NCBI RefSeq assembly: GCF_046105845.1
Contig: NZ_CP151004.1
DNA length: 64,000 nucleotides
DNA from: Escherichia coli
GTDB lineage: Bacteria > Pseudomonadota > Gammaproteobacteria > Enterobacterales > Enterobacteriaceae
Direction: 5' to 3' (one strand)
Part shown: positions 5,348 to 54,107 of the stretch, piece by piece
Position numbering within the stretch: position 1 is the stretch's first letter
How the letters are laid out: each line of letters begins with the position of its first letter
Program-made: the position numbers and the translations under genes
The notes under the pieces: generated by a model
Databases searched by the model: none
Told to the model about the DNA's origin: nothing
Seen by the model: only the letters and a program-made list of their open reading frames with translations

Positions 5348-6579
5348 GAGCAAGCTCCCTCTAAATAATGATGAATCGCCTCGGCGGCTTCTTTCCCGGT
5401 TTTCACGGCATAGACCACGGTTTTGTCACCCTCAACAATATCGCCAGCAGCAAAGACTTGCGGGTCGCGGGTCTGGTAATTTTGTGTATTGATGGTGTTA
5501 CGCTGCGGCTCTAACTCCGCAAAGGCATCCAGTCTGGCATGCTGACCGACGGCGAGAATAATTTTATCTGCCGCCATCGTCAGTTCGCCCGGTAACCGTA
5601 CATGCTTAAACGTGACTTTATTGCCTTCCACGGCTACTGGCGTGAATCCATCAATGATCGAAACGCCCAGCTCCCGGGCGCTGGCAAACTCTTTTTCGCT
5701 TGCCGGAAACTCATCTAACTCTTCACGCGCTACGCAAGTTACTGCCTGACAGCCGAGAACTTTCAGCGTGCTGGCTACGTCCATCGCGACATCACCGCCG
5801 CCGATAATTAATGCGCTTTGTGGAATGCTGATATCGCCTTGCGCCTGTCGTGCACGTTGCAAGAAGTCGACGGCAATCTCAACGTCGCTATGCTCAAACA
5901 GTGGTAGCCCCGAACCGCTCGATAACCCCACGGTGACCAGTACCGCGCGGTTTTCCGCTTTCAGCTGCTCCAGGGTGAGTGTTTTACCGATTTCGTTATT
6001 GCACTTAATGGTCACGCCCATTTTTTCAATACGGGCGATTTCTGCATCCAGTACTGATTGCGGTAACCGGAATTGCGGAATGCCGTTACGCAACCAGCCA
6101 CCGGCTTGTGCTTCTTTCTCATAGATCGTGACGTCATAACCCTGGTTTGTCAGTGTCACACTGGCCTGCAATCCGGCAGGACCCGCGCCAATAATGGCGA
6201 CTTTGCCGAGCGTTTTAGTACCGGGTTGATAAATTTCCATCCCAGTTTGTTGTTCAAAATCAGTAACAAAACGCTGTAAGCGACCGATATCAATGGGAGT
6301 ATCAACACCGGCACGGGTACAACCGCTTTGGCATAATTTCTCCGTCGGGCACACTCTGGCACAAACGGCACCGAGGGCATTATTTTCACGAATTGTCTCG
6401 GCAGCGCCTTTAAAATTACGAAAGTAGATTGAGCGAATAAATTTCCCCGGATCGGTCTGTGCCGGGCAAGCCTGACTACAGGGAGCGTCATGACATAATA
6501 AGCAGCGAGAGGCTTCTTTAATCGCCAGTAAAGGCGTAAAAGCCGGAGTGAGTTCATCCAGATAATTTTGTTGCGGCAT
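5341..6579 (-). CDS. preT: Dihydropyrimidine dehydrogenase subunit PreT (FAD/NAD-binding)
   Basis: 412-aa ORF with GAGPAG dinucleotide-binding motif and N-terminal Fe-S cysteines; upstream partner of preA. Confidence 0.92.
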
Positions 6580-11452: not shown

Positions 11453-11546
11453 GTGATTATATGAAGCAATGCACATGACAGGAGCGCAACAGGATGAGAG
11501 ACTGAAATATTCTCGTTATTTTCGGATCTGATGACATTAATTAATT

Positions 11547-11630
11547 TTAAAATATCATCTTAAATACGCCAGTCACCACCAGTAGCCCAATCAGGAAAAT
11601 AATCAATACAGCCCAGAGTATAATTTTCAT
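11547..11630 (-). CDS. yohP: Small membrane protein YohP (27 aa)
   Basis: Hand translation gives MKIILWAVLIIFLIGLLVVTGVFKMIF*, a single-transmembrane small protein; not in the ORF track because of its size. Confidence 0.7.
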   Translation of the reverse strand: MKIILWAVLIIFLIGLLVVTGVFKMIF

Positions 11631-11853
11631 TGGCGTTCCTTTATTTGTGAGTGCTGAATAAGTATAGGAAAAAACGAAGCCCTTTGCCGCTATCCATAAA
11701 CTATTAAGATAAATCGGAAGATATCATTCACTTAGTGTATATTTTTCTGGATATGTCGTTTTATTGCCACTGATGTATTGCCACGCGAAACTAAAAAATA
11801 TATCGCAACACACGGTAATCTCCGCGCACCTTTTCTTACCTGATTATTCCCCC

Positions 11854-40600: not shown

Positions 40601-41256
40601 TCAAGGTCTACCAACTCATTGGCGATTTCTGGTTTTTCCGGGAGGATCAGCGCAATAAAAGGGCGGCGAACTTTGGTTATTCCTGGCAGTGCGGCAATGA
40701 GTTTGTCGGCGCAACGCTGCCAGCTGCTTTCCTCTGCCAGAGAGAGATGCTTACGCAGTCGGAGATCGAATTCGTTATAGGTTTCTGAGCGATAACCATA
40801 GCCATAATCCTCGTCCTGATACTGCAATGTCACTAGCAGAGGATCACTTTCATAACACCGTGCAATAAACTGGCGTGCAATCACCACCTCAGTCGCATAT
40901 TCCAGTCCCTCTTGTTGGACGATTTCGTCGAGCAACTGTTGGCTATCATTTTGCGCGATACAGGCTAGCGCCGCCATTGTCCGGGCCGGAACTGAGGGTT
41001 TGTGTTCTCCGATCAAGTTGATGGCCTGCGTAATGGCCGACTGCCACTCCAGTGAAAAATTTTCATAACGCCAGACAATGTTTTTTTTCTTCTCAGCTTT
41101 TTGTAGCAATTCATCACCCAGTGTCTGGATGAGGCTTTCAGTGATAACAGGCACTGGTTCGCCCGGCCAACTGCGATGGCTGAGCGGCGTTTTGCCTTTT
41201 TTATATTTCAGTTCCACTTGGGCGTTATCCGCCAGCCACGGTAATTCCTTGTCCAT
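37624..41256 (-). CDS. yehI: Large DUF4132-family protein YehI
   Basis: 1210-aa ORF; extensive paralogy with molR (RLRKHLSLAEESSWQRCADKLIAALPGI versus RLRKHLALAEETLWQRCVDKFITALPDI). Confidence 0.93.
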   Translation of the reverse strand: MDKELPWLADNAQVELKYKKGKTPLSHRSWPGEPVPVITESLIQTLGDELLQKAEKKKNIVWRYENFSLEWQSAITQAINLIGEHKPSVPARTMAALACIAQNDSQQLLDEIVQQEGLEYATEVVIARQFIARCYESDPLLVTLQYQDEDYGYGYRSETYNEFDLRLRKHLSLAEESSWQRCADKLIAALPGITKVRRPFIALILPEKPEIANELVDLECPRTHFHSKEWLKVVANDPRAVKKLERYWSQDIFSDREASYMSHENHFGYAACAALLREQGLAAVPRLAMYAHKEDCGSLLVQINHPQVIRTLLLVADKNKPSLQRVAKYSKNFPHATLAALAELLALKEPPARPGYPIIEDKKLPAQQKARDEYWRTLLQTLMASQPQLAAEVMPWLSTQARAVLNSYLSAPPKPVIDGTDNSNLPEILVSPPWRSKKKMTVPRLDLAPFELTPQVYWQPGERERLAATESARYFSTESLAERMEHKSGRVVLQELGFGDDVWLFLNYILPGKLDAARNSLIVQWHYYPGRVEEIMNGWSSPEAQLAEQALRSGHVEVLINIWENDSYSRYRREKSIWNLYLLAQLPREMALTFWLRINEKKHLSAGEDYFLSIFGLDALPGLLLAFSHRPKETFPLILNFGATELALPVARVWRRFAAQRDLARQWILQWPEHTATALIPLVFIKSSDNSEAALFALRLLYEQGHGELLQTVANRWDRADVWPALEKILTQNPLEIYPARMPKAPDFWHPQMWSRPRLITNNQPVTDDALEIIGEMLRFTQGGRFYSGLEQLKTFCQPQTLAAFAWDLFTAWQQAGAPAKDNWAFLALSLFGDESTARDLTTQILAWPQEGKSARAVSGLNILTLMNNDMALMQLHHISQRAKSRPLRDNAAEFLQVVAENRGLSQEELADRLVPTLGLDDPQALSFDFGPRQFTVRFDENLNPVIFDQQNVRQKSVPRLRADDDQLKAPEALARLKGLKKDATQVSKNLLPRLETALRTIRRWSLADFRSLFVNHPFTRLVTQRLIWGVYPANEPRRLLNAFRVAAEGEFCNAQDEPIDLPADALIGIAHPLEMTAEMRSEFAQLFADYEIMPPFRQLSRRTVLLTPDESTSNSLTRWEGKSATVGQLMGMRYKGWESGYEDAFVYGLGEYRLVLKFSSSFNRYNVDSKALMSFRSLCVYRDNKSVTFAELDVFDLSEALSAPDVIFH

Positions 41257-41265
41257 GCTCTTTCC

Positions 41266-44200
41266 TTATTCAAACAGGGCTTCAATATCGTTAATGAGTT
41301 CGCTGGCGGTGATGTCGTCGAGCACGGAGAACTGCGCTTCCTGTGTTGAATTACTCCCCCAGCCATAGCTTTCCGCTTTGCCTTCCCATAGCCACAGCTT
41401 ACTCAAGAGTTGCTCGGCACTGAGTTCGGCTGGCGACATGCCGACCGCAAAACCTTCATCGATTTTCATGATTAACGACCAGCGGCCCAGCGGTTTGATC
41501 ATCCAGCCGATCCAGCCACCGTCCTGCGGTTCACCACGCATCCAGCCTTTATTCGCCAGCCCCATTACCCGACCGCTCGGGCATTTTCTGCCTGCCCAGC
41601 GGGTCAATTCGCTGGCATTGCGCTCGGTTTCTGTCAGGGCGTAACTGTTACGGTCGAGCTGGCGGAACGGCGGTAGCAGTTCGTAGTCGGCAAAAAGTTG
41701 ACCAAAGGCGGCAGCATCCGTGGGTGATATTTCCAGAACGTGAGGAATCCAACAGAGATATCGCCTTCCGGCAGGGTGAAAAGATCATCGTCTGCGGTGC
41801 TGTAGCTGTTATCTTCCGCCACGCGAAAGCAAGCCAGTAGCTCGTTTTCGGTGCTATAAACGCCCCAAATCAGACGGCGGGTTAAGTGACGAACCAGCGG
41901 ATGCTCAACCAGGAAGAGCTGAAAGTTTTCCGGCGACCAGCGGCGGCGCAGGCACATGGCGGATTCCAGCCTTGCTACCTGCTGGGCGGCGACGGTACGC
42001 GCATCTTTTTTCAGCAATTTGTAGCGGTTAACAGCATCGTTTGCCTGTGATTCATCATCGCTTTTATTGGGTTTAGGTAAGTCTTTCAGGCGGCTGCCGG
42101 AAACATCGCGCACAAACGGTTTTAAGGTTTCATCAAAGCTGACGGTGAACTGGCGTGGGCCAAAATCCAGCAGCAGCGAACCGTTATCATCCAGACCGAG
42201 ATCCGGTGCTAACCGATCTTCAAGCTCCGCTACCGTCAGTTCGCGACTCTCGGCAATGTCGGCAATTTTTTCTTTTGCCCGCTCCTGTAATGCTTTGAAT
42301 TTCAGTTTCTGGGCGATCCCGTTAAGCTGCATCAGGGCGATATCACTACCGATAGCAGCGAGAATATCCAGCCCGACGGTGGCGCGTTTATGCTGGGATT
42401 CACCAGGCCAGGCGCGAATCAAAGGCGTCAGTTTGCGGGCGGTGTCGTCGTTACCGAGAACGCCTAACGCAGTGAACGCCCAGCTCTCTTTCGATGGTGC
42501 GCCAGCGGCCAGCCAGGCGGTAAACAGATCCCAGGTAAATTCAGCCAGTGAGTCGGCGGTACAGGCGGCTTTCACCTGCAATAATCCCGGATACAGTGCC
42601 TCTTCCTGAGGGAAGCGGAGCATTTCACCGAGGCGTAGGAGGGCGCTATCTGGCAGTGATTGGGCATTTGCTTTTAATACCGGGCGGGTCCAGATCGATG
42701 GCTGATAAAAGGCCGGAAGAGTGGGGATTTTTGTCGGGTGATTATCTAAGGGATCGAGCGCAAGCATAGCGTTCACCGCATCTATTACTTCCGGCTGGTT
42801 ATAACGCCGGGCGATTTCTTGCAGTAATGGCTGATGATCGTTTTCGATAAGCATACGCAAGGCAGCGCGGGCGTTATCCTGGGCTTCACCGGCTTTGCCG
42901 AGCGCCGCAGGCAGTAGGCCGGTAATGGCGTGTTCCGGGTATTTCAGCAGCCAGGTGCGGGCGTCTTGTCGTAGGGTTTTGAGTTTGTTGAAGGCGCGGG
43001 CGATCAGTGGCGCTAATTCGATAGCCGCAAAATATTGTGCTACAGGCAGAGCTTCTTGTGGATAGCGTGAAAAGGAGTGAATAAAACCCTGTAACCCAGT
43101 GAGTTGCAGGTGCGTCATGACAAACTCGACACCGACGTGTGGCTCTTTACTGAGGACATTCCACGCCTGCGCTGTCTTTTCGATAGGCAGGGCGGCTAAC
43201 ATGTAAAGCTGCCATTCCCGTTGATAGGAGTGCCAGAAGGTTTTAAATTCGCTGATCAGCGCGGAATAATGTCCCCTTTGCCAGAGATCTATAGCAGCAT
43301 CAGGCGCTTTCATATACTGGCCATTATTCCAGCGATTGAAACCCAGACGTGCCAGGTAGTTCTGAATATCCTCTTTTTGGCCGATGTCTATTTGATGTGC
43401 GTGCCAGCGATGCCTTGCATGAATCTCTTTTTCTGCCGTCTCGGTCAATGTGCAGCATGACTCCAACGATAATGGCGTTAAATCCAATACCGGTATAACA
43501 GATTTTTTCTTTTTCGAAAGCCAGGGCGGTGAGACTAATACGGCAGGCAGTAGATCGGCGCAGGCATGGTTTGAGGGCTGTGTCAGTTGTTGCAGGCATG
43601 CTTTCAGCACTGCAACTGCGGGTGTTGAGAGCCAGGGAGTGACCTGATCTGCCAGTGCCGGTTGCGAGATAAGCATCGTCATCAGCATAATGCGCCAACT
43701 ATTCTCTTCTTTTTGCGCAAGAAGTTCCGCCAGTGCCGCCAGTGCCGTGTGTGGGAACGCAGCGCAAGCCTTAGTCATTCGTTCATGGCAGCGTTTAGTT
43801 TTGCCAGACACACGTATAAGTAGCATTAATGCTTGTGGGTGATTGATCTCTGCGAGAATGCTTCCGCAAAGATCAGCATAAGCATAGGGGGCGAAGCGAG
43901 CGATTCCAGCAATCCCTTGCTCCTGCAAAACGGTGACATTCCAGATGCAACCATGGTAATAGTCATTAAAAAGGTCGTACGCGCAATAAGATTCCAGTGC
44001 TTTGAGTAAGGAAGATTCTTGAACAACAAGTTTCAGCCATTCAACAGTTTGGACATTTTTCTGCTTCAGTAACCGTCGTGCGACTTCTTCTGCAATCTCC
44101 GGGCGTTCCGGTAGCATTAGCGCTACCATCGGTTGTTGAACGGGAGGAATATCAGGTAAAGCTGTAATGAATTTATCTACACAGCGTTGCCACAAAGTTT

Positions 44201-45014
44201 CTTCTGCAAGAGCCAAATGCTTACGCAGTCGAACGTCAAAGGGGGTAACACAATGTGCATGGTTTAATAATGGCTGAAAAGTAATGTGTATGCTTGTTCT
44301 GTGATAAGCGCAATCGAACGAGATATATTGCATGGCAATAAACATATCCACGGCAAATTCTAGTCCGTAGACATAGACAATTTCATCCATGAGTTCAGGG
44401 CATTCGCCCCAGAATTTACGCGAAACCAGACCAACCTGTACAGCCAACGCAGCAGGAGAAAGTGGACCATTAGCGAGAGCTTCATTGATATTCTGCTGCC
44501 AGTTAGCAGAACATGCACTGAAATCGTATGTTGTTAATTTTCCTGATAGATTATGAATATCCTGACCTAAATTCATAAGGAGGCTGTCTTGTGGTTCGCT
44601 TACAGCATCCCCAGGAAAACGTCGGGAAGGTAAGGCCTCCTGAGACTTTTTCTCCGATAGATGGATAGTGGAATCATCTGTAAGCCACGGGCATGGTGTC
44701 TCAGCAGGTTCAGCAACCATACTTTGGTCAAATACGACAGTGGTTTCTGCCACGCCAGTTGTATCTACTTCGATCGTTTCTATTTTGATTGCGGTTTGGG
44801 ATGGCGAAGATAATTCTTCCACATACCCCTTCTTCACCTTCTCCGCAATCAGCTTCAGTCCCGCTTTTTCCGCCGCTGCTGCATCCGCAAAACTTTTTAC
44901 CTGGCTTTGTCCGTTGGTGCCGACTTTACCCCAGTTGATGTGCAGTTCGTTTCCCTGCTGCTCCACCGCCCAGAATTTATGTGATTTTTCGTCCTGATAG
45001 ATAAAGTGTTTCAT
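41266..45014 (-). pseudogene. molR: molR (yehH): WGR-domain/DUF4132 giant protein gene with a frameshift near the C-terminus
   Basis: ORFs 41634-45014 (1126 aa) and 41266-41607 are in different frames; the second frame continues the YehI-like C-terminal homology (ISPTDAAAFGQLFADYELLPPFRQL...); N-terminus has a WGR-like motif (KFWAVEQQGNELHINWGKVGTNG). Confidence 0.8.
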
Positions 45015-45154
45015 TCTGCATCCCTGTAATTTTATCCAGTTGAATGCTGATGCTACCAGTATTTATGCGGGTTAGAGAGAGACAAAATCGCAAGAAAACA
45101 ACTTTAGGAATTTATAAAGAAAAGGCGCTGTCGATGCAGCGCCTTGAAGGGGGA

Positions 45155-47188
45155 TTATTTCACCTGATGACCCGGTTTAGCACCGGCATCCGGGCTTAGC
45201 AGGAAAATATCTTTCCCGCCAGGACCGGCAGCCATCACCATGCCTTCAGAGATACCGAAGCGCATTTTACGTGGTGCCAGGTTAGCCACCATAATGGTGT
45301 GACGACCAATCAGTGCCTGCGGATCCGGGTAAGCAGAACGAATGCCGGAGAAGACATTGCGTTTTTCACCGCCGAGATCCAGCGTCAGGCGCAGCAGTTT
45401 GTCAGAACCTTCAACAAACTCTGCGTTTTCGATCAACGCCACGCGCAGGTCAACTTTGGCGAAGTCGTCAAAGGTGATGGTTTCCTGAATCGGATCATCT
45501 GCCAGCGGGCCAGTAACTGGTGCGGCAGCGGCTTTCACTTCTTCTTTAGAGGCTTCCACCAGTGCTTCAACCTGCTTCATGTCGATGCGGTTATACAGCG
45601 CTTTGAACGGATTCACTTTGTGGCCCAGCAGCGGTTGCTGGATACCATCCCAGGTCAGTTCCGTATTAAGGAATGCTTCTGCGCGCTCGGTCAGTATCGG
45701 CAGTACCGGCTTCAGGTAAGTCATCAGCACGCGGAACAGGTTTATGCCCATTGAGCAAATTGCCTGCAGGTCGACATCGCGGTCTTCCTGTTTCGCCACC
45801 ACCCACGGAGCCTGTTCATCGACATAGCGGTTAGCCAGATCAGCCAGCGCCATAATTTCGCGTACTGCTTTACCAAATTCGCGGCTTTCCCACGCTTCAC
45901 CAACCACTTCAGCGGCATCCGTGAAGGTTTTGTACAACTGCGGGTCAGCCAGTTCGCTTGCCAGCACGCCGTCAAAACGCTTGTTGATAAAGCCAGCGTT
46001 ACGGGATGCCAGGTTAACCACTTTATTCACGATATCGGCATTCACACGCTGAACGAAATCTTCCAGGTTGAGATCGATATCATCAATGCGCGAAGAGAGT
46101 TTCGCAGTGTAGTAGTAACGCAGGCTGTCAGCATCAAAATGATTCAGCCAGGTGCTGGCTTTAATAAAGGTGCCGCGAGACTTGGACATCTTCGCGCCGT
46201 TCACCGTCACATAGCCATGAACAAACAGGTTAGTCGGTTTGCGGAAGTTGCTGCCTTCCAGCATTGCTGGCCAGAACAGGCTGTGGAAGTAAACAATATC
46301 TTTACCGATGAAGTGGTACAGCTCGGCGGTGGAGTCTTTCTTCCAGTATTCATCGAAGCTTACGCTGTCGCCGCGCTTGTCGCACAGATTCTTGAAAGAA
46401 CCCATATAGCCAATCGGCGCATCCAGCCAGACGTAGAAATATTTGCCCGGTGCGTTCGGAATTTCAAAACCGAAGTACGGCGCATCGCGGGAGATATCCC
46501 ACTGTTGCAGGCCAGATTCAAACCACTCCTGCATTTTGTTTGCCACCTGCTCCTGCAACGCGCCACTGCGGGTCCATGCCTGCAACATTTCGCTGAAAGA
46601 GGGCAGATCAAAGAAGAAGTGTTCAGAATCACGCATTACCGGCGTAGCACCAGAAACCACCGATTTAGGCTCGATAAGCTCAGTCGGGCTGTAGGTCGCG
46701 CCGCAGACTTCGCAGTTATCGCCGTATTGATCCGGGGATTTACATTTCGGGCAGGTGCCTTTTACAAAACGGTCCGGCAGGAACATGCCTTTTTCTGGAT
46801 CGTACAGCTGTGAGATGGTGCGGTTTTTAATAAAACCGTTCTCTTTCAGGCGAGAATAAATAAGTTCTGACAACTGGCGGTTCTCTTCGCTGTGCGTCGA
46901 GTGATAGTTGTCATAGCTGATGTTAAAGCCCGCAAAATCAGTCTGATGTTCCTGACTCATTTCGCCAATCATCTGCTCCGGGGTGATACCAAGCTGCTGA
47001 GCTTTCAGCATGATCGGTGTGCCGTGGGCATCGTCGGCGCAGATGAAGTTGACCTCGTGGCCGCGCATTCGCTGGTAACGGACCCAGACATCAGCCTGGA
47101 TGTGCTCCAGCATATGGCCGAGGTGGATTGAGCCGTTAGCGTACGGCAGTGCGCACGTCACCAGAATTTTCTTCGCGACTTGAGTCAT
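45155..47188 (-). CDS. metG: Methionyl-tRNA synthetase
   Basis: Start at [25 protein letters not shown] (HIGH motif) gives 677 aa; KMSKS present. Confidence 0.97.
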
Positions 47189-47319
47189 AGTAGGCATTAC
47201 TTCTTAATAGTGAAAAGGGGTTAGATAGTACCAAATGGGAAAATGTTAAGTAAGTACTTCTCTATATTCTTCAGGTAAACTATCAGCTGATGGTTTATCT
47301 ATACAAAAAAGGAGTCGGG

Positions 47320-48429
47320 ATGAACGAACAATCCCAGGCCAAATCACCAGAAGCCTTGCGCGCAATGGTCGCCGGGACACTGGCCAATTTTCAGCACCCA
47401 ACCCTGAAGCATAACCTCACCACGCTGAAAGCGTTGCACCATGTCGCCTGGATGGACGACACGCTGCATGTGGAACTGGTTATGCCATTCGTCTGGCATA
47501 GCGCGTTCGAAGAGTTAAAAGAGCAATGTAGCGCCGAACTGCTGCGCATCACCGGAGCGAAAGCTATCGACTGGAAACTGTCGCATAACATAGCCACTCT
47601 GAAACGCGTGAAGAATCAGCCGGGAATTAACGGCGTGAAGAACATTATCGCGGTCAGTTCCGGTAAAGGTGGCGTGGGTAAATCCTCCACGGCGGTAAAC
47701 CTGGCGTTGGCACTGGCGGCGGAAGGGGCGAAAGTCGGCATTCTGGACGCCGATATCTACGGCCCATCAATCCCTACCATGCTGGGCGCAGAAAATCAGC
47801 GTCCAACTTCGCCGGACGGTACCCATATGGCACCGATTATGTCTCATGGACTGGCAACCAATTCAATTGGTTATCTGGTCACTGACGACAATGCGATGGT
47901 GTGGCGTGGTCCGATGGCGAGCAAGGCGTTAATGCAGATGTTGCAGGAAACCTTGTGGCCGGATCTCGACTATCTGGTGCTTGATATGCCGCCAGGCACC
48001 GGTGACATTCAATTGACACTGGCACAAAACATTCCAGTAACTGGTGCGGTCGTGGTCACCACCCCACAAGACATCGCGTTGATCGATGCGAAAAAAGGCA
48101 TTGTGATGTTCGAGAAAGTCGAGGTTCCGGTGCTTGGTATTGTCGAGAACATGAGTGTGCATATTTGCAGTAACTGTGGTCACCATGAACCGATTTTCGG
48201 TACCGGTGGTGCTGAGAAACTGGCTGAAAAATACCACACACAGCTGCTGGGGCAGATGCCGTTACACATCTCCTTACGTGAGGATCTCGATAAAGGCACG
48301 CCAACGGTTATCAGCCGTCCGGAGAGCGAATTTACCGCTATCTACCGCCAGCTGGCTGACCGCGTTGCAGCTCAGCTCTACTGGCAGGGTGAAGTCATTC
48401 CAGGCGAGATTTCCTTCCGCGCGGTCTAA
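47320..48429 (+). CDS. mrp: Fe-S cluster carrier ATPase Mrp/ApbC
   Basis: Start at MNEQSQAKSPEAL gives 369 aa; P-loop GKGGVGKSS and CxxC motif. Confidence 0.95.
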   Translation: MNEQSQAKSPEALRAMVAGTLANFQHPTLKHNLTTLKALHHVAWMDDTLHVELVMPFVWHSAFEELKEQCSAELLRITGAKAIDWKLSHNIATLKRVKNQPGINGVKNIIAVSSGKGGVGKSSTAVNLALALAAEGAKVGILDADIYGPSIPTMLGAENQRPTSPDGTHMAPIMSHGLATNSIGYLVTDDNAMVWRGPMASKALMQMLQETLWPDLDYLVLDMPPGTGDIQLTLAQNIPVTGAVVVTTPQDIALIDAKKGIVMFEKVEVPVLGIVENMSVHICSNCGHHEPIFGTGGAEKLAEKYHTQLLGQMPLHISLREDLDKGTPTVISRPESEFTAIYRQLADRVAAQLYWQGEVIPGEISFRAV

Positions 48430-48459
48430 CGCCTATTAACCATTCTGGTTATTCTTTAT

Positions 48460-48500
48460 ACACCGCAGAGATGTTACATTGATGCGGTGTATTTGTTTTT
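48460..48500 (+). terminator. Intrinsic terminator downstream of mrp
   Basis: ACACCGCA...TGCGGTGT stem followed by ATTTGTTTTT. Confidence 0.45.
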
Positions 48501-48691
48501 GCTGCATTAATGAACACTTATTTAATGCTGCGAATATTCTGCGGACCTTCGTCCGAAACTCTATAAAGTCGATTGATCGTACAGGCAATGCTTCATTATC
48601 ATCCTTCGTGGCTGTGTAGTGGATGTACAGCTATAGTTTGTTATGCACTCATTCTATCCAGGCATAACCTTTACTACAGGGATAACGTTCA

Positions 48692-48973
48692 ATGAATAAG
48701 TACTGGCTGTCAGGAATTATTTTTCTTGCCTATGGAATGGCTTCTCCCGCGTTCTCTTCACAGACTGCCACATTAACGATTAATGGCAGGATCAGTCCCC
48801 CAACATGCAGTATGGCTATGGTTAATGGTCAACCTCAACAGCATTGTGGTCAGTTAACGTATGATGTTGATACCCGTCATCAGGTTTCTTCGCCAGTCAA
48901 AGGTGTAACGACAGAAGTGGTTGTTGCAGGTAGCGATAGCAAACGTCGAATCGTGTTAAATCGCTACGATTAA
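48692..48973 (+). CDS. yehE: Small secreted protein YehE
   Basis: 93-aa ORF with signal peptide, upstream of the yehDCBA fimbrial operon. Confidence 0.8.
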   Translation: MNKYWLSGIIFLAYGMASPAFSSQTATLTINGRISPPTCSMAMVNGQPQQHCGQLTYDVDTRHQVSSPVKGVTTEVVVAGSDSKRRIVLNRYD

Positions 48974-49268
48974 TTTGCCACCCTGGTTTTTTAATCGAAT
49001 TTAGAAAGCTGAAATCATTCGCGTGAATGATTTCAGCTTTTTTATTGATATCAATAATATCATTTACAAAAATCTGCATTAATTAATAGATGTGATAAAT
49101 ATTTAATATGCTTAAGTATTTGTTGTATTTATATTGCAATAGTTAATTTGTTTTAAATCAATAAAACAATATGTTTACATTGCGGCAACTTTTTTGATGT
49201 GAGAAATTTGTTTCCAAGAGATACAGACTCTTAACAACCAAAAAATAAATTTTATTAAGGAACATATT

Positions 49269-49811
49269 ATGAAACGTTCAATTATTGCTGCCGCTGTTTT
49301 TTCTTCTTTTTTTATGAGTGCTGGGGTATTTGCCGCAGACGTTGATACCGGAACATTAAGTATTAAAGGGAATATTGCAGAATCTCCGTGTAAATTCGAA
49401 GCGGGTGGCGATTCAGTAAGTATTAATATGCCAACTGTACCAACCACTGTCTTTGAAGGTAAAGCTAAATACTCGACCTATGATGATGCAGTCGGTGTAA
49501 CCAGCAGCATGTTAAAAATTAGCTGTCCGAAAGAAGTTGCTGGTGTAAAACTCTCGTTGATTACCAACGATAAAATAACCGGAAACGATAAGGCGATAGC
49601 CAGTAGCAACGATACCGTGGGGTACTATCTCTATTTAGGTGATAACAGCGATGTCCTGGATGTTTCTGCACCTTTTAACATTGAGAGTTATAAAACAGCG
49701 GAAGGTCAATATGCTATTCCGTTTAAAGCAAAATACCTGAAGCTGACAGATAATTCAGTGCAATCAGGTGATGTGTTATCTTCTCTGGTTATGCGTGTGG
49801 CGCAGGATTAA
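49269..49811 (+). CDS. yehD: Fimbrial major subunit YehD
   Basis: 180-aa ORF with signal peptide and fimbrial subunit features. Confidence 0.9.
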   Translation: MKRSIIAAAVFSSFFMSAGVFAADVDTGTLSIKGNIAESPCKFEAGGDSVSINMPTVPTTVFEGKAKYSTYDDAVGVTSSMLKISCPKEVAGVKLSLITNDKITGNDKAIASSNDTVGYYLYLGDNSDVLDVSAPFNIESYKTAEGQYAIPFKAKYLKLTDNSVQSGDVLSSLVMRVAQD

Positions 49812-49891
49812 TAAATAAAATTTCAAGTTTCTCCAGTTAATAAACATGGCCGCTATCCCCATGGCGGCCTTTTAATTTAAGAGGCATTAAG

Positions 49892-50566
49892 ATGAAAGGA
49901 TTATTAGCTTTACTCATTTCTTCTATGGTCCTTCCTGCACATGCCGGTATTGTTATCTACGGGACGCGTATTATTTACCCGGCAGAAAATAAAGAAGTGA
50001 TGGTGCAGTTGATGAATCAGGGAAACCGTTCTTCGCTGCTGCAGGCGTGGATTGATGATGGCGATACGTCGTTACCACCAGAAAAAATTCAGGTTCCTTT
50101 CATGTTAACGCCACCAGTGGCAAAAATAGGGGCAAATTCCGGGCAGCAAGTAAAAATCAAAATTATGCCGAATAAACTGCCTACTAATAAAGAGAGCATT
50201 TTTTATCTGAATGTTCTGGATATTCCACCAAATAGTCCAGAGCAAGAGGGCAAGAATGCACTGAAATTTGCAATGCAAAACAGAATTAAATTGTTTTACC
50301 GGCCTGCGGGTATTGCACCGGTAAATAAAGCGACATTTAAAAAGTTACTGGTAAATCGCAGTGGCAATGGATTGGTGATAAAAAATGACTCAGCAAATTG
50401 GGTAACGATTTCGGATGTCAAAGCTAATAATGTCAAAGTCAATTATGAAACTATTATGATTGCCCCCTTAGAAAGTCAGAGTATTAATGTCAAAAATAAT
50501 AATGCGAATAACTGGTACCTGACCATTATCGATGACCATGGCAACTATATTAGTGACAAAATTTAA
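49892..50566 (+). CDS. yehC: Periplasmic fimbrial chaperone YehC (PapD-like)
   Basis: 224-aa ORF with signal peptide; chaperone-usher family sequence; the K-12 annotation may use an earlier alternative start. Confidence 0.88.
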   Translation: MKGLLALLISSMVLPAHAGIVIYGTRIIYPAENKEVMVQLMNQGNRSSLLQAWIDDGDTSLPPEKIQVPFMLTPPVAKIGANSGQQVKIKIMPNKLPTNKESIFYLNVLDIPPNSPEQEGKNALKFAMQNRIKLFYRPAGIAPVNKATFKKLLVNRSGNGLVIKNDSANWVTISDVKANNVKVNYETIMIAPLESQSINVKNNNANNWYLTIIDDHGNYISDKI

Positions 50567-50581
50567 TTGCAGGAGCTGCCT

Positions 50582-53062
50582 ATGTTGAGAATGACCCCAC
50601 TTGCATCAGCAATCGTAGCGTTATTGCTCGGCATTGAAGCTTATGCAGCTGAAGAAACCTTTGATACCCATTTTATGATAGGTGGAGTGAAAGATCAGCA
50701 GGTTGCAAATATTCGTCTTGATGATAATCAACCCTTGCCGGGGCAGTATGACATCGATATTTATGTCAATAAGCAATGGCGCGGGAAATATGAGATCATT
50801 GTTAAAGACAACCCGCAAGAAACATGTTTATCAAGGGAAATTATCAAGCGGTTAGGCATTAATACCGATAACTTTGCCAGCGGTAAGCAATGTTTAACAT
50901 TTGAGCAACTTGTTCAGGGAGGGAGCTATACCTGGGATATCGGAGTTTTTCGTCTCGATTTCAGTGTCCCGCAGGCGTGGGTGGAAGAACTGGAAAGTGG
51001 CTATGTTCCACCGGAAAACTGGGAGCGGGGTATTAATGCGTTTTATACCTCTTATTATGTGAGTCAGTATTACAGCGACTATAAAGCGTCGGGTAATAGC
51101 AAGAGTACATATGTACGTTTTAACAGCGGGTTAAACTTACTGGGGTGGCAACTGCATTCTGATGCCAGTTTCAGTAAAACAAATAGCAATCCAGGGGTGT
51201 GGAAAAGCAATACCCTGTATCTGGAACGTGGATTTGCCCAACTTCTCGGCACGCTTCGCGTGGGTGATATGTACACATCAAGCGATATTTTTGATTCTGT
51301 TCGCTTCAGCGGTGTGCGGTTGTTTCGTGATATGCAGATGTTGCCTAACTCGAAACAAAATTTTACTCCACGGGTGCAGGGGATTGCTCAGAGTAACGCG
51401 CTGGTAACTATTGAACAGAACGGTTTTGTGGTTTATCAGAAAGAGGTTCCTCCTGGCCCGTTTGCGATTACAGATTTGCAGTTGGCCGGTGGTGGAGCGG
51501 ATCTTGATGTCAGCGTGAAAGAGGCGGACGGTTCGGTAACCACCTATCTGGTGCCTTATGCAGCGGTGCCAAATATGCTGCAACCTGGCGTATCGAAATA
51601 TGATTTTGCGGCGGGTCGTAGCCATATTGAAGGGGCAAGCAAACAAAGTGATTTTGTCCAGGCGGGTTATCAGTATGGTTTTAATAATTTATTGACGCTG
51701 TATGGTGGCTCGATGGTCGCGAATAATTATTACGCGTTCACTTTGGGGACTGGCTGGAATACACGCATTGGTGCCATTTCCGTCGATGCCACGAAGTCGC
51801 ATAGTAAACAAGACAACGGCGATGTGTTTGACGGGCAAAGTTATCAAATTGCCTACAACAAATTTGTGAGCCAAACGTCGACGCGTTTTGGTCTGGCGGC
51901 CTGGCGTTATTCGTCGCGTGATTACCGGACATTTAACGATCACGTTTGGGCAAACAATAAAGATAATTATCGCCGTGATGAAAACGATATCTATGACATT
52001 GCCGATTATTACCAGAACGATTTTGGCCGTAAAAATAGCTTTTCTGCCAATATGAGCCAGTCATTGCCAGAAGGCTGGGGTTCTGTGTCCTTAAGTACGT
52101 TATGGCGAGATTACTGGGGGCGTAGCGGCAGCAGTAAGGATTATCAGTTGAGTTATTCCAACAACCTGCGACGGATAAGCTATACCCTCGCGGCAAGCCA
52201 GGCTTATGACGAGAATCATCATGAAGAGAAACGTTTTAATATTTTTATATCGATTCCCTTTGATTGGGGTGATGACGTTACGACGCCTCGTCGGCAAATA
52301 TATATGTCTAACTCAACGACGTTTGATGATCAGGGTTTTGCCTCAAATAATACGGGATTATCGGGAACCGTTGGAAGCCGGGATCAATTTAACTATGGGG
52401 TCAACCTGAGTCATCAGCATCAGGGAAATGAAACGACAGCTGGAGCGAATTTAACCTGGAACGCGCCGGTTGCGACAGTGAATGGCAGTTATAGTCAGTC
52501 GAGTACTTATCGACAGGCTGGAGCCAGTGTTTCAGGGGGCATTGTCGCCTGGTCGGGGGGCGTTAATCTGGCGAACCGTCTTTCCGAAACGTTTGCAGTG
52601 ATGAATGCGCCAGGAATTAAAGATGCTTATGTCAATGGGCAAAAATATCGCACAACAAACCGTAATGGAGTGGTGGTATACGACGGAATGACACCTTATC
52701 GGGAAAATCACCTGATGCTGGATGTGTCGCAAAGCGATAGCGAAGCAGAATTGCGCGGTAACCGGAAAATTGCCGCCCCTTTTCGCGGCGCGGTTGTACT
52801 GGTTAATTTTGATACCGATCAGCGCAAGCCCTGGTTTATAAAAGCGTTAAGAGCGGATGGGCAACCATTAACGTTTGGTTATGAAGTCAATGATATCCAC
52901 GGTCATAATATTGGCGTTGTCGGCCAGGGAAGTCAGTTATTTATTCGCACCAATGAAGTACCGCCATCGGTTAATGTAGCAATTGATAAGCAACAAGGAC
53001 TTTCATGCACAATCACCTTCGGTAAAGAGATTGATGAAAGTAGAAATTATATCTGTTGGTGA
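50582..53062 (+). CDS. yehB: Fimbrial outer-membrane usher YehB
   Basis: Start at MLRMTPLASAIVALLLG gives 826 aa; usher family sequence. Confidence 0.93.
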   Translation: MLRMTPLASAIVALLLGIEAYAAEETFDTHFMIGGVKDQQVANIRLDDNQPLPGQYDIDIYVNKQWRGKYEIIVKDNPQETCLSREIIKRLGINTDNFASGKQCLTFEQLVQGGSYTWDIGVFRLDFSVPQAWVEELESGYVPPENWERGINAFYTSYYVSQYYSDYKASGNSKSTYVRFNSGLNLLGWQLHSDASFSKTNSNPGVWKSNTLYLERGFAQLLGTLRVGDMYTSSDIFDSVRFSGVRLFRDMQMLPNSKQNFTPRVQGIAQSNALVTIEQNGFVVYQKEVPPGPFAITDLQLAGGGADLDVSVKEADGSVTTYLVPYAAVPNMLQPGVSKYDFAAGRSHIEGASKQSDFVQAGYQYGFNNLLTLYGGSMVANNYYAFTLGTGWNTRIGAISVDATKSHSKQDNGDVFDGQSYQIAYNKFVSQTSTRFGLAAWRYSSRDYRTFNDHVWANNKDNYRRDENDIYDIADYYQNDFGRKNSFSANMSQSLPEGWGSVSLSTLWRDYWGRSGSSKDYQLSYSNNLRRISYTLAASQAYDENHHEEKRFNIFISIPFDWGDDVTTPRRQIYMSNSTTFDDQGFASNNTGLSGTVGSRDQFNYGVNLSHQHQGNETTAGANLTWNAPVATVNGSYSQSSTYRQAGASVSGGIVAWSGGVNLANRLSETFAVMNAPGIKDAYVNGQKYRTTNRNGVVVYDGMTPYRENHLMLDVSQSDSEAELRGNRKIAAPFRGAVVLVNFDTDQRKPWFIKALRADGQPLTFGYEVNDIHGHNIGVVGQGSQLFIRTNEVPPSVNVAIDKQQGLSCTITFGKEIDESRNYICW

Positions 53063-53072
53063 GAGGTGGAAT

Positions 53073-54107
53073 ATGATGTTCAGAAATGGAATGTTACTAA
53101 TATTTATTTTATGGGTTAATTTTACCTGGGCTGGATGTCGTACCACTGCATCATTAAATATTACTGATAGTATTAATGTGGGGGAGATTTTAGCGAATGA
53201 GGTTTCCTTTAGTAAAAGTGTTGTGTTTACTGGGATATCTTGTGATACGAGCACGGATAAAATAGTCTATAAAAATATCCAAAGTGATTGGGTTGAAGTC
53301 GGGCCTTTTGGTAATGGCGAAAAGTTAAAGGTTAAAATAGAGTCTTTAGGTAAAACCAGTGACACGATTGGGAAATCCAGCAATGCGCAGGCAGTATTAC
53401 CCTATGTGGTTAAAATATCTAAAGGCACACCTGATTTTACTGGAGAAAGAAAACCTACCTGGTTTCTTTCAGATACTGTGATTGCAAATATTGGCGGTGA
53501 GTCATCTTCATCCATTGACTTTTGGTTGAGCATTTGTAAGACATTGAAGATTAACTGGTGTGTAAGTTATCTCACCAGTAAACTGGCGGGGGATACATTT
53601 ACGCTTGGATTAAGTATTTCCTATTATCCTAAAAATACGACCTGTAAGCCTGAAAACACAATAATAAAAGTAGATGATATTGCCTTGTCCCAATTCAGAA
53701 GTCAGGGAAAGATTACGGCGAATAGTAAGGAAGGAATAATTACGTTGAAATGTGATAATCTTTTCGGCGACACAAAACAAGCATCGCGGAATATGGTCGT
53801 ATATCTTTCCAGCAGTGACTTAGTTACAGGAAGCAATACAATTTTGCGCGGCAACATAGATAATGGTGTAGGATTTGTGTTGGATCTAAAAGAACCACCC
53901 AAAGGGACTGAAGCAGCCATCAAAATTTCTGCTAGCGGCGATCAGGGCGCGGCGACATCATTATGGAAAACAGATAAAACCGGGGCTTCTTTAAATAGTA
54001 ATATTATTAATATACCTGTCCTGGCCAGTTACTACGTCTACGATACAAACAAAGTAAAATCTGGCGCACTACAGGCAACCGCATTAATCAACGTGAAATA
54101 CGACTAA
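53073..54107 (+). CDS. yehA: Fimbrial adhesin-like protein YehA
   Basis: GAGGTGG Shine-Dalgarno then MMFRNGMLLIF (signal peptide) gives 344 aa. Confidence 0.88.
   Translation: MMFRNGMLLIFILWVNFTWAGCRTTASLNITDSINVGEILANEVSFSKSVVFTGISCDTSTDKIVYKNIQSDWVEVGPFGNGEKLKVKIESLGKTSDTIGKSSNAQAVLPYVVKISKGTPDFTGERKPTWFLSDTVIANIGGESSSSIDFWLSICKTLKINWCVSYLTSKLAGDTFTLGLSISYYPKNTTCKPENTIIKVDDIALSQFRSQGKITANSKEGIITLKCDNLFGDTKQASRNMVVYLSSSDLVTGSNTILRGNIDNGVGFVLDLKEPPKGTEAAIKISASGDQGAATSLWKTDKTGASLNSNIINIPVLASYYVYDTNKVKSGALQATALINVKYD

Follow-up and report, generated by a model that had tools for sequence, protein, structure and literature searches.

The AT-rich yehE-yehD gap of Escherichia coli as a probable layered control region of the yehDCBA fimbrial operon

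Background

The chaperone-usher operons sfm, ycb/elf, yad, ybg, yfc and yra are H-NS-silenced cryptic operons with AT-rich, H-NS-occupied DNA upstream of them. According to Korea et al. 2010, as relayed in PMC5797941, they are poorly expressed in the laboratory and functional when driven from a foreign promoter. The gaps upstream of yadN, sfmA, elfA, ybgD, yfcV and yraH are also promoter islands (PMC3661553), and so is the gap between yehE and yehD in K-12, which is listed as island 2190229_357, one of 78 (Panyukov and Ozoline 2013, PMC3661553 Table 1). This island is also marked as part of a predicted genomic island, and it was bound by H-NS in the ChIP-chip data of both Kahramanoglou (MG1655) and Oshima (W3110), as tabulated in PMC3661553. 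Curran et al. place yehDCBA in the H-NS regulon and call it cryptic (PMC5797941); they report its repression by H-NS second-hand, citing Korea et al. 2010. The operon was also 3.6-fold up on over-production of SlyA, an H-NS antagonist (PMC5797941), and yehEDCBA lies in a static, silenced region of extended protein occupancy (bioRxiv 10.1101/2024.06.20.599902).

Other described systems resemble the yeh gap in part. The invertible fimS element and the Dam/Lrp switch of pap share with it AT-rich DNA upstream of a fimbrial major-subunit gene; they differ from it in that a recombinase, inverted alleles and GATC sites are all lacking at the yeh gap. ArcA-P operators (Park et al. 2013) have direct repeats spaced by 11 bp, and the yeh site is like them in its four repeats, in the repression of the downstream operon and in its position over the likely promoter. 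Unlike the other cryptic operons, the yeh region adds the terminator of an upstream gene on the same strand and a published ArcA site.

Here we describe this gap in a 64,000-nucleotide stretch of E. coli DNA, hereafter the window. An earlier sequence-only reading had proposed that about 300 bp of strongly AT-rich DNA precede an intact yehDCBA operon and form a typical H-NS-silenced cryptic fimbrial promoter.

Results

The gap is the GC minimum of the window

The yehE-yehD intergenic gap spans 48974-49268 (295 bp); its first base directly follows the stop codon of yehE, and its last base directly precedes the ATG of yehD. The gene order around it, established by BLAST against 5,426 complete E. 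coli genomes, is metG / apbC / yehE / yehDCBA / rcnBA. The flanking genes are as follows:

48692..48973, plus strand: yehE, a 93-aa secreted protein with a DUF2574 domain (Pfam E = 1.4e-51), named yehE in matching genomes.
49269..54107, plus strand: yehD, yehC, yehB and yehA, an intact chaperone-usher fimbrial operon, from Pfam domains and the annotation of matching genomes.

The yehE/yehD island of K-12 MG1655 is the orthologous locus, with the same flanking genes. The K-12 gap is 90.5% identical to that of the window and nearly equal in length (292 versus 295 bp) and in GC content (24.3% versus 24.4%). Once a 1,978-bp offset between genome versions was corrected, island 2190229_357 mapped to the full length of the gap and reached a few bases into both genes. 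This orthology to a published region supports the view that the gap is a typical H-NS-silenced cryptic fimbrial promoter. The H-NS silencing, the ArcA effects and the expression effects known from other strains are carried to the strain of the window by orthology only, and they would be expected to hold there on that basis.

The profile of AT content bore out the proposed AT-rich stretch. The GC content of the gap was 24.4%, compared to 50.6% for the whole window. Only 0.09% of the 295-bp windows in a 64-kb scan were as low in GC, and all of them overlapped 48974-49268; the gap was also the lowest of the 28 intergenic gaps of the window (mean 44.2%, standard deviation 8.5%). The segment 49046-49180 within it was at 17% GC. 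TpA steps numbered 31 in the gap, against a mean of 13.9, which places it in the top 0.3% of windows. As in H-NS-silenced regions, AT content was well over the genome average across about 100 bp or more. The whole yeh cluster was at 41.6% GC beside flanks of 52%, as expected of an H-NS target. The window contains another AT-rich gap, at 11477-11772 (35.5% GC), while its maximum of -10-like hexamers lies at about 11451 and its maximum of TpA steps near 6551.

The operon is intact and its cluster may be recombined

All four genes of the operon encode proteins with full-length Pfam domains, in agreement with the initial description of an intact operon:

YehD, 180 aa: Fimbrial domain.
YehC, 224 aa: PapD_N and PapD_C domains.
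YehB, 826 aa: PapC_N, Usher and PapC_C domains, full length.
YehA, 344 aa (gene 53073-54107): Fimbrial domain, a putative tip adhesin.

The yehA gene is dimorphic: the allele of the window was found at full length in only 649 of the 5,426 complete E. coli genomes, and the common K-12-type yehA shares with it only the last ~84 nt. The housekeeping flank at 41000-48429 (DUF4132 genes, metG and apbC) reached no more than 97.9% identity with any of the complete E. coli genomes, whereas the yehE-yehA genes (48692-54107) were 99.1-99.7% identical to those of strain M217. This difference suggests that the lineage is divergent and that its yeh cluster has undergone recombination.

Many chaperone-usher operons have an attenuator after the major-subunit gene. 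A similar GC-rich hairpin, GGCCGCTATCCCCATGGCGGCC, followed by a T-run, was seen at 49848-49869, between yehD and yehC. Two strains carried disruptions of the locus. In E. coli NR1442, an IS1 sits right after the yehE terminator, in place of the remaining gap, of yehD and of a 5' portion of yehC (L017 2562-3316). In strain 2-331, the match is broken by an insertion of IS1 size that seems to lie in yehD, a gene annotated in two pieces in that strain.

An intrinsic terminator of yehE occupies the start of the gap

The first element of the gap is not promoter DNA:

49003..49046, plus strand: intrinsic terminator of yehE, from RNA fold and covariation.

It lies 30 nt past the yehE stop codon and consists of a perfect core stem, 49008-49020 with 49025-49037, a GCGT loop, then T6; an A-run upstream extends the stem from 13 to 18 bp. 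The predicted fold was at -28.2 kcal/mol (z = -6.9), and none of 200 shuffled sequences folded as well. Among 7 Escherichia and Citrobacter sequences, 95.6% of the cells of the stem were paired, compared to 28-55% for slid controls. Two-sided changes were found in 5 of the 13 pairs, with a covariation score that was reached by none of 500 shuffles. The hairpin thus shows both a stem-loop with a U-run after the stop codon and compensatory change in relatives, and it is the intrinsic terminator of yehE. A simple scan had overlooked it because the stem runs on into the T-tract. Since yehE transcription ends there, yehD needs a promoter of its own. The promoter reading of the gap therefore does not extend to the first ~70 bp, which are the yehE terminator.

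Concerning yehE itself, the sequence that follows the signal peptide of the protein, TATLTINGRISPPTC, is reminiscent of the beginning of mature YehD, TGTLSIKGNIAESPC; the overall similarity was not significant, and the idea that YehE is a truncated paralogue of YehD was not supported (BLASTP E = 1.5). A second conserved non-coding block, at 48590-48690, lies directly 5' of yehE, with a pairwise identity of 0.92-0.97 within Escherichia; it is probably the promoter and leader of yehE.

The spacer conserves composition rather than sequence

Between the terminator and the half of the gap near yehD lies the following segment:

49046..49117, no strand: distal AT core, or spacer, 18% GC; variable sequence, AT-richness kept.

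This spacer was compared in 13 sequences, which represent several Escherichia species as well as Citrobacter: their mean pairwise identity was 61%, and the GC content was 18-33% in every one of them. Composition of this kind suggests a tract where H-NS may nucleate and spread. Specific sites were looked for as well. The high-affinity H-NS 10-mer TCGATAAATT had no match in the gap with fewer than 2 mismatches (matches at that level were at 48966 and 49081), and it was not enriched in the window (76 matches versus 66 expected). Likewise, the SlyA 12-mer consensus was not enriched; the single SlyA-like match with 2 mismatches, at 49001-49012, falls inside the terminator.

The window differs from the K-12 island in that its allele of the distal half, 48974-49117, is a minority one: the two differ at 24 of 144 sites, compared to 6.5% of the third codon positions in the flanking genes (Fisher P = 3e-4). 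About 766 of the 5,426 complete genomes carry an allele with 95% identity or more to that of the window, and this is ordinary allelic variation. The distal half thus evolves faster than largely synonymous sites and yet stays AT-rich; it could be a recombination patch or a segment under very weak constraint on sequence.

Such drift would also fit a purely passive origin, in which AT-richness is a by-product of horizontal acquisition, mutation bias and the terminator, with no regulatory role; the low GC content of the whole yeh cluster is likewise as this explanation would have it. However, GC was kept at 18-33% in the 13 spacer sequences despite their 61% identity, the gap is the GC extreme of the window and not merely low, and H-NS occupancy in vivo together with expression effects has been published, as tabulated or relayed in PMC3661553 and PMC5797941. 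We consider a passive origin very improbable.

The half near yehD is a conserved block

The next segment behaves in the opposite way, its sequence being kept:

49118..49250, plus strand: conserved promoter/operator block, delimited by cross-species identity, with a putative core promoter and regulator sites.

Its identity to the window was 93% in O157, where third codon positions of yehD were at 56% and where yehE and yehD were only 76% and 80% identical overall. It was 85-90% in E. albertii and in an E. whittamii-like genome, and 66% in Citrobacter, where third codon positions were at 38%. Sliding identity within Escherichia peaked at 0.98, at 49182-49221. A scan of 100,044 species representatives for a conserved 27-nt motif of the block returned only Escherichia species and three Citrobacter genomes, so the block is not a widespread enterobacterial element; in the eight loci found with the motif, its positions are invariant by construction. 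Purifying selection is thus stronger on the half near yehD than on either yehE or yehD, which is a modestly useful point of the analysis, and only mildly new. The two patterns fit two constraints: one on composition in the spacer, as for H-NS, and one on sequence in the block, as for specific proteins and RNA polymerase. Since the half near yehD is an operator/promoter block that keeps its sequence and carries an ArcA site, base composition is accordingly only part of the silencing.

Within the block, the phylogenetic footprint points to a promoter:

49180..49208, plus strand: candidate sigma-70 promoter, with -35 TTGCGG (49180-49185), a 17-nt spacer and an extended -10 TGaGAAATT (49200-49208).

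TTGCGG, the 17-nt spacing and TGnGAA(A/T)TT are kept in all the Escherichia sequences and in the three Citrobacter sequences, and we infer from this footprint that yehD may be transcribed from 49180-49208. The candidate does not appear in the output of a simple sigma-70 scan, and yehD is listed with 'no TSS' in PMC3798270 Table S6. A strict sigma-70 scan of the gap gave no excess of sites (2 found versus 2.3 expected), and the loose -10 pattern TANNNT placed the gap in the top 4% of windows; these scans used a strict consensus and the TANNNT pattern, whereas the promoter island class is defined by dense overlapping promoter-like signals over at least 300 bp, scored with PlatProm.

An operator overlaps the candidate promoter:

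49149..49191, minus strand: ArcA-P site, four direct repeats 11 bp apart, orthologous to a published K-12 site.

The site lies inside the conserved block, and 42 of its 43 bases match K-12 U00096.2 2190321-2190363 (PMC3798270 Table S4). The TGTTA-like direct repeats with 11-bp spacing are present in the sequence, and the binding itself is known from the literature: ArcA gave a 3.9-fold ChIP-seq peak at K-12 yehD, in one replicate only, and yehDCBA was 5.4-fold up in an arcA mutant (PMC3798270). YehD is also among the ArcA targets obtained by genomic SELEX (PMC6134199). The repeats overlap the likely -35, which would fit repression by occlusion.

Other regulators have been reported for the orthologous genes. 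Over-production of BolA raises yehD. When tagged CsiR was over-produced in K-12, yehD was the top induced gene (55.8-fold), and a ChIP peak was found at U00096.2 2190601 (PMC5217608). This peak maps to about 48909 in the window, within yehE and some 65 bp from its 3' end. The best 14-mer in common with the csiD promoter (12 of 14 positions) was no better than those obtained with shuffled sequences.

Taken together, these data raise the question of whether control lies mainly with regulators that recognise specific sequences in the block (ArcA, perhaps CsiR, and a further activator), with H-NS binding secondary or incidental. Conservation of the block far exceeds that of the genes beside it, and silencing by composition alone does not call for this. 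The published ArcA binding and derepression and the CsiR response point the same way, as does the observation that loss of the protein-occupancy domain alone did not induce yehDCBA (bioRxiv 10.1101/2024.06.20.599902), from which it follows that H-NS is not the whole story. Against this, H-NS occupied the island in the two independent ChIP-chip studies as tabulated, and repression by H-NS is reported second-hand; the results for CsiR were obtained by over-expression of a tagged protein, and the 14-mer adds nothing to them. We judge it unlikely that specific regulators dominate. Control by specific regulators and silencing by H-NS are compatible, and not exclusive of one another.

The ribosome-binding site is invariant and the leader unstructured

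The last element of the gap lies next to yehD:

49257..49262, plus strand: Shine-Dalgarno sequence AAGGAA, 7 nt 5' of the yehD ATG; its GGA is the CsrA contact in EHEC.

AGGAA was invariant in 15 of 15 sequences, and the putative 5'UTR of yehD had no significant RNA structure (z = +1.1). EHEC 86-24 transcribes the yeh locus as one unit from its native promoter; in this strain, CsrA contacts the yehD leader at the GGA within the ribosome-binding site and promotes expression, and ethanolamine plus vitamin B12 (adenosylcobalamin in the assay) raise YehD levels (PMC11287998). In gel assays, CsrA shifts the yehD 5'UTR, and a GG-to-CC mutation abolishes the shift (PMC11287998). The operon is therefore not silent in every strain.

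With this element, the layout of the gap is complete: it is not uniform, but consists of a terminator, an AT-rich spacer, a conserved block and a ribosome-binding site.

The gap is most unlikely to conceal another element

We also considered whether the gap conceals a phase-variation switch, of the fimS or of the Dam/Lrp type, a small RNA, or a gene for a small protein. An inverted repeat of 15 nt (49040-49054 and 49152-49166, 87% complementary) does flank 97 bp of the AT core. However, this repeat is absent in O157, no recombinase gene lies nearby, and a synthetic query in inverted orientation had no full-length match above 84% identity in the 5,426 genomes. A fimS-type invertible switch was rejected on these grounds, the inverted repeat being weak and inverted alleles being absent from the genomes searched. 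A pap-type Dam/Lrp switch was also rejected, as 48974-49268 contains no GATC site. An Rfam scan of 48400-49900 at E <= 1 returned only chance hits of microRNA models on the terminator hairpin, and the leader of yehD is unstructured. The gap fully contains two short minus-strand open reading frames (20 and 35 aa), but the 35-aa frame is disrupted by 1-nt indels in O157-type alleles, and among the small open reading frames of 20-90 aa that overlap the gap none was conserved in frame. A concealed element of any of these kinds is the least credible of the explanations considered, with a negligible chance of being right.

Discussion

We conclude with good confidence that the gap is a layered control region of the yehDCBA fimbrial operon, made of a terminator, a putative H-NS tract, an operator/promoter block and a ribosome-binding site. 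Its working could be pictured as follows. The intrinsic terminator would isolate yehD from yehE transcription. The ~70-bp spacer (18% GC), with its AT- and TpA-rich surroundings, would recruit H-NS, and an H-NS filament across the promoter would keep the operon off in laboratory conditions, in a silencing of the xenogeneic type that antagonists such as SlyA may partly relieve. The ~130-bp conserved block would hold the core promoter and specific operators, where ArcA-P repeats over the likely -35 would add anaerobic repression. Finally, CsrA would act at the ribosome-binding site, in a short unstructured leader.

A control region between yehE and yehD is real, ordinary and already described. 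The present analysis has little importance beyond annotation, and provides a finer map of a known control region; it also illustrates that a classic H-NS target is recognisable from sequence alone.

The conservation of the proximal block nevertheless suggests specific regulation, incompletely assigned so far, and it indicates to those who work on Yeh fimbriae where point mutations should be placed. A tentative possibility, which we hold to be clearly less than even, is that 49118-49250 is a dedicated control module that combines the ArcA repeats with an activator site, the lead candidate being CsiR/GlaR. If such is the case, Yeh fimbriae would be more than cryptic: a natural signal, such as oxygen or glutarate/carbon starvation, would gate them tightly together with H-NS. 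More generally, the stronger constraint on the block argues for an operon that is used in nature under specific factors, and not for a decaying cryptic locus.
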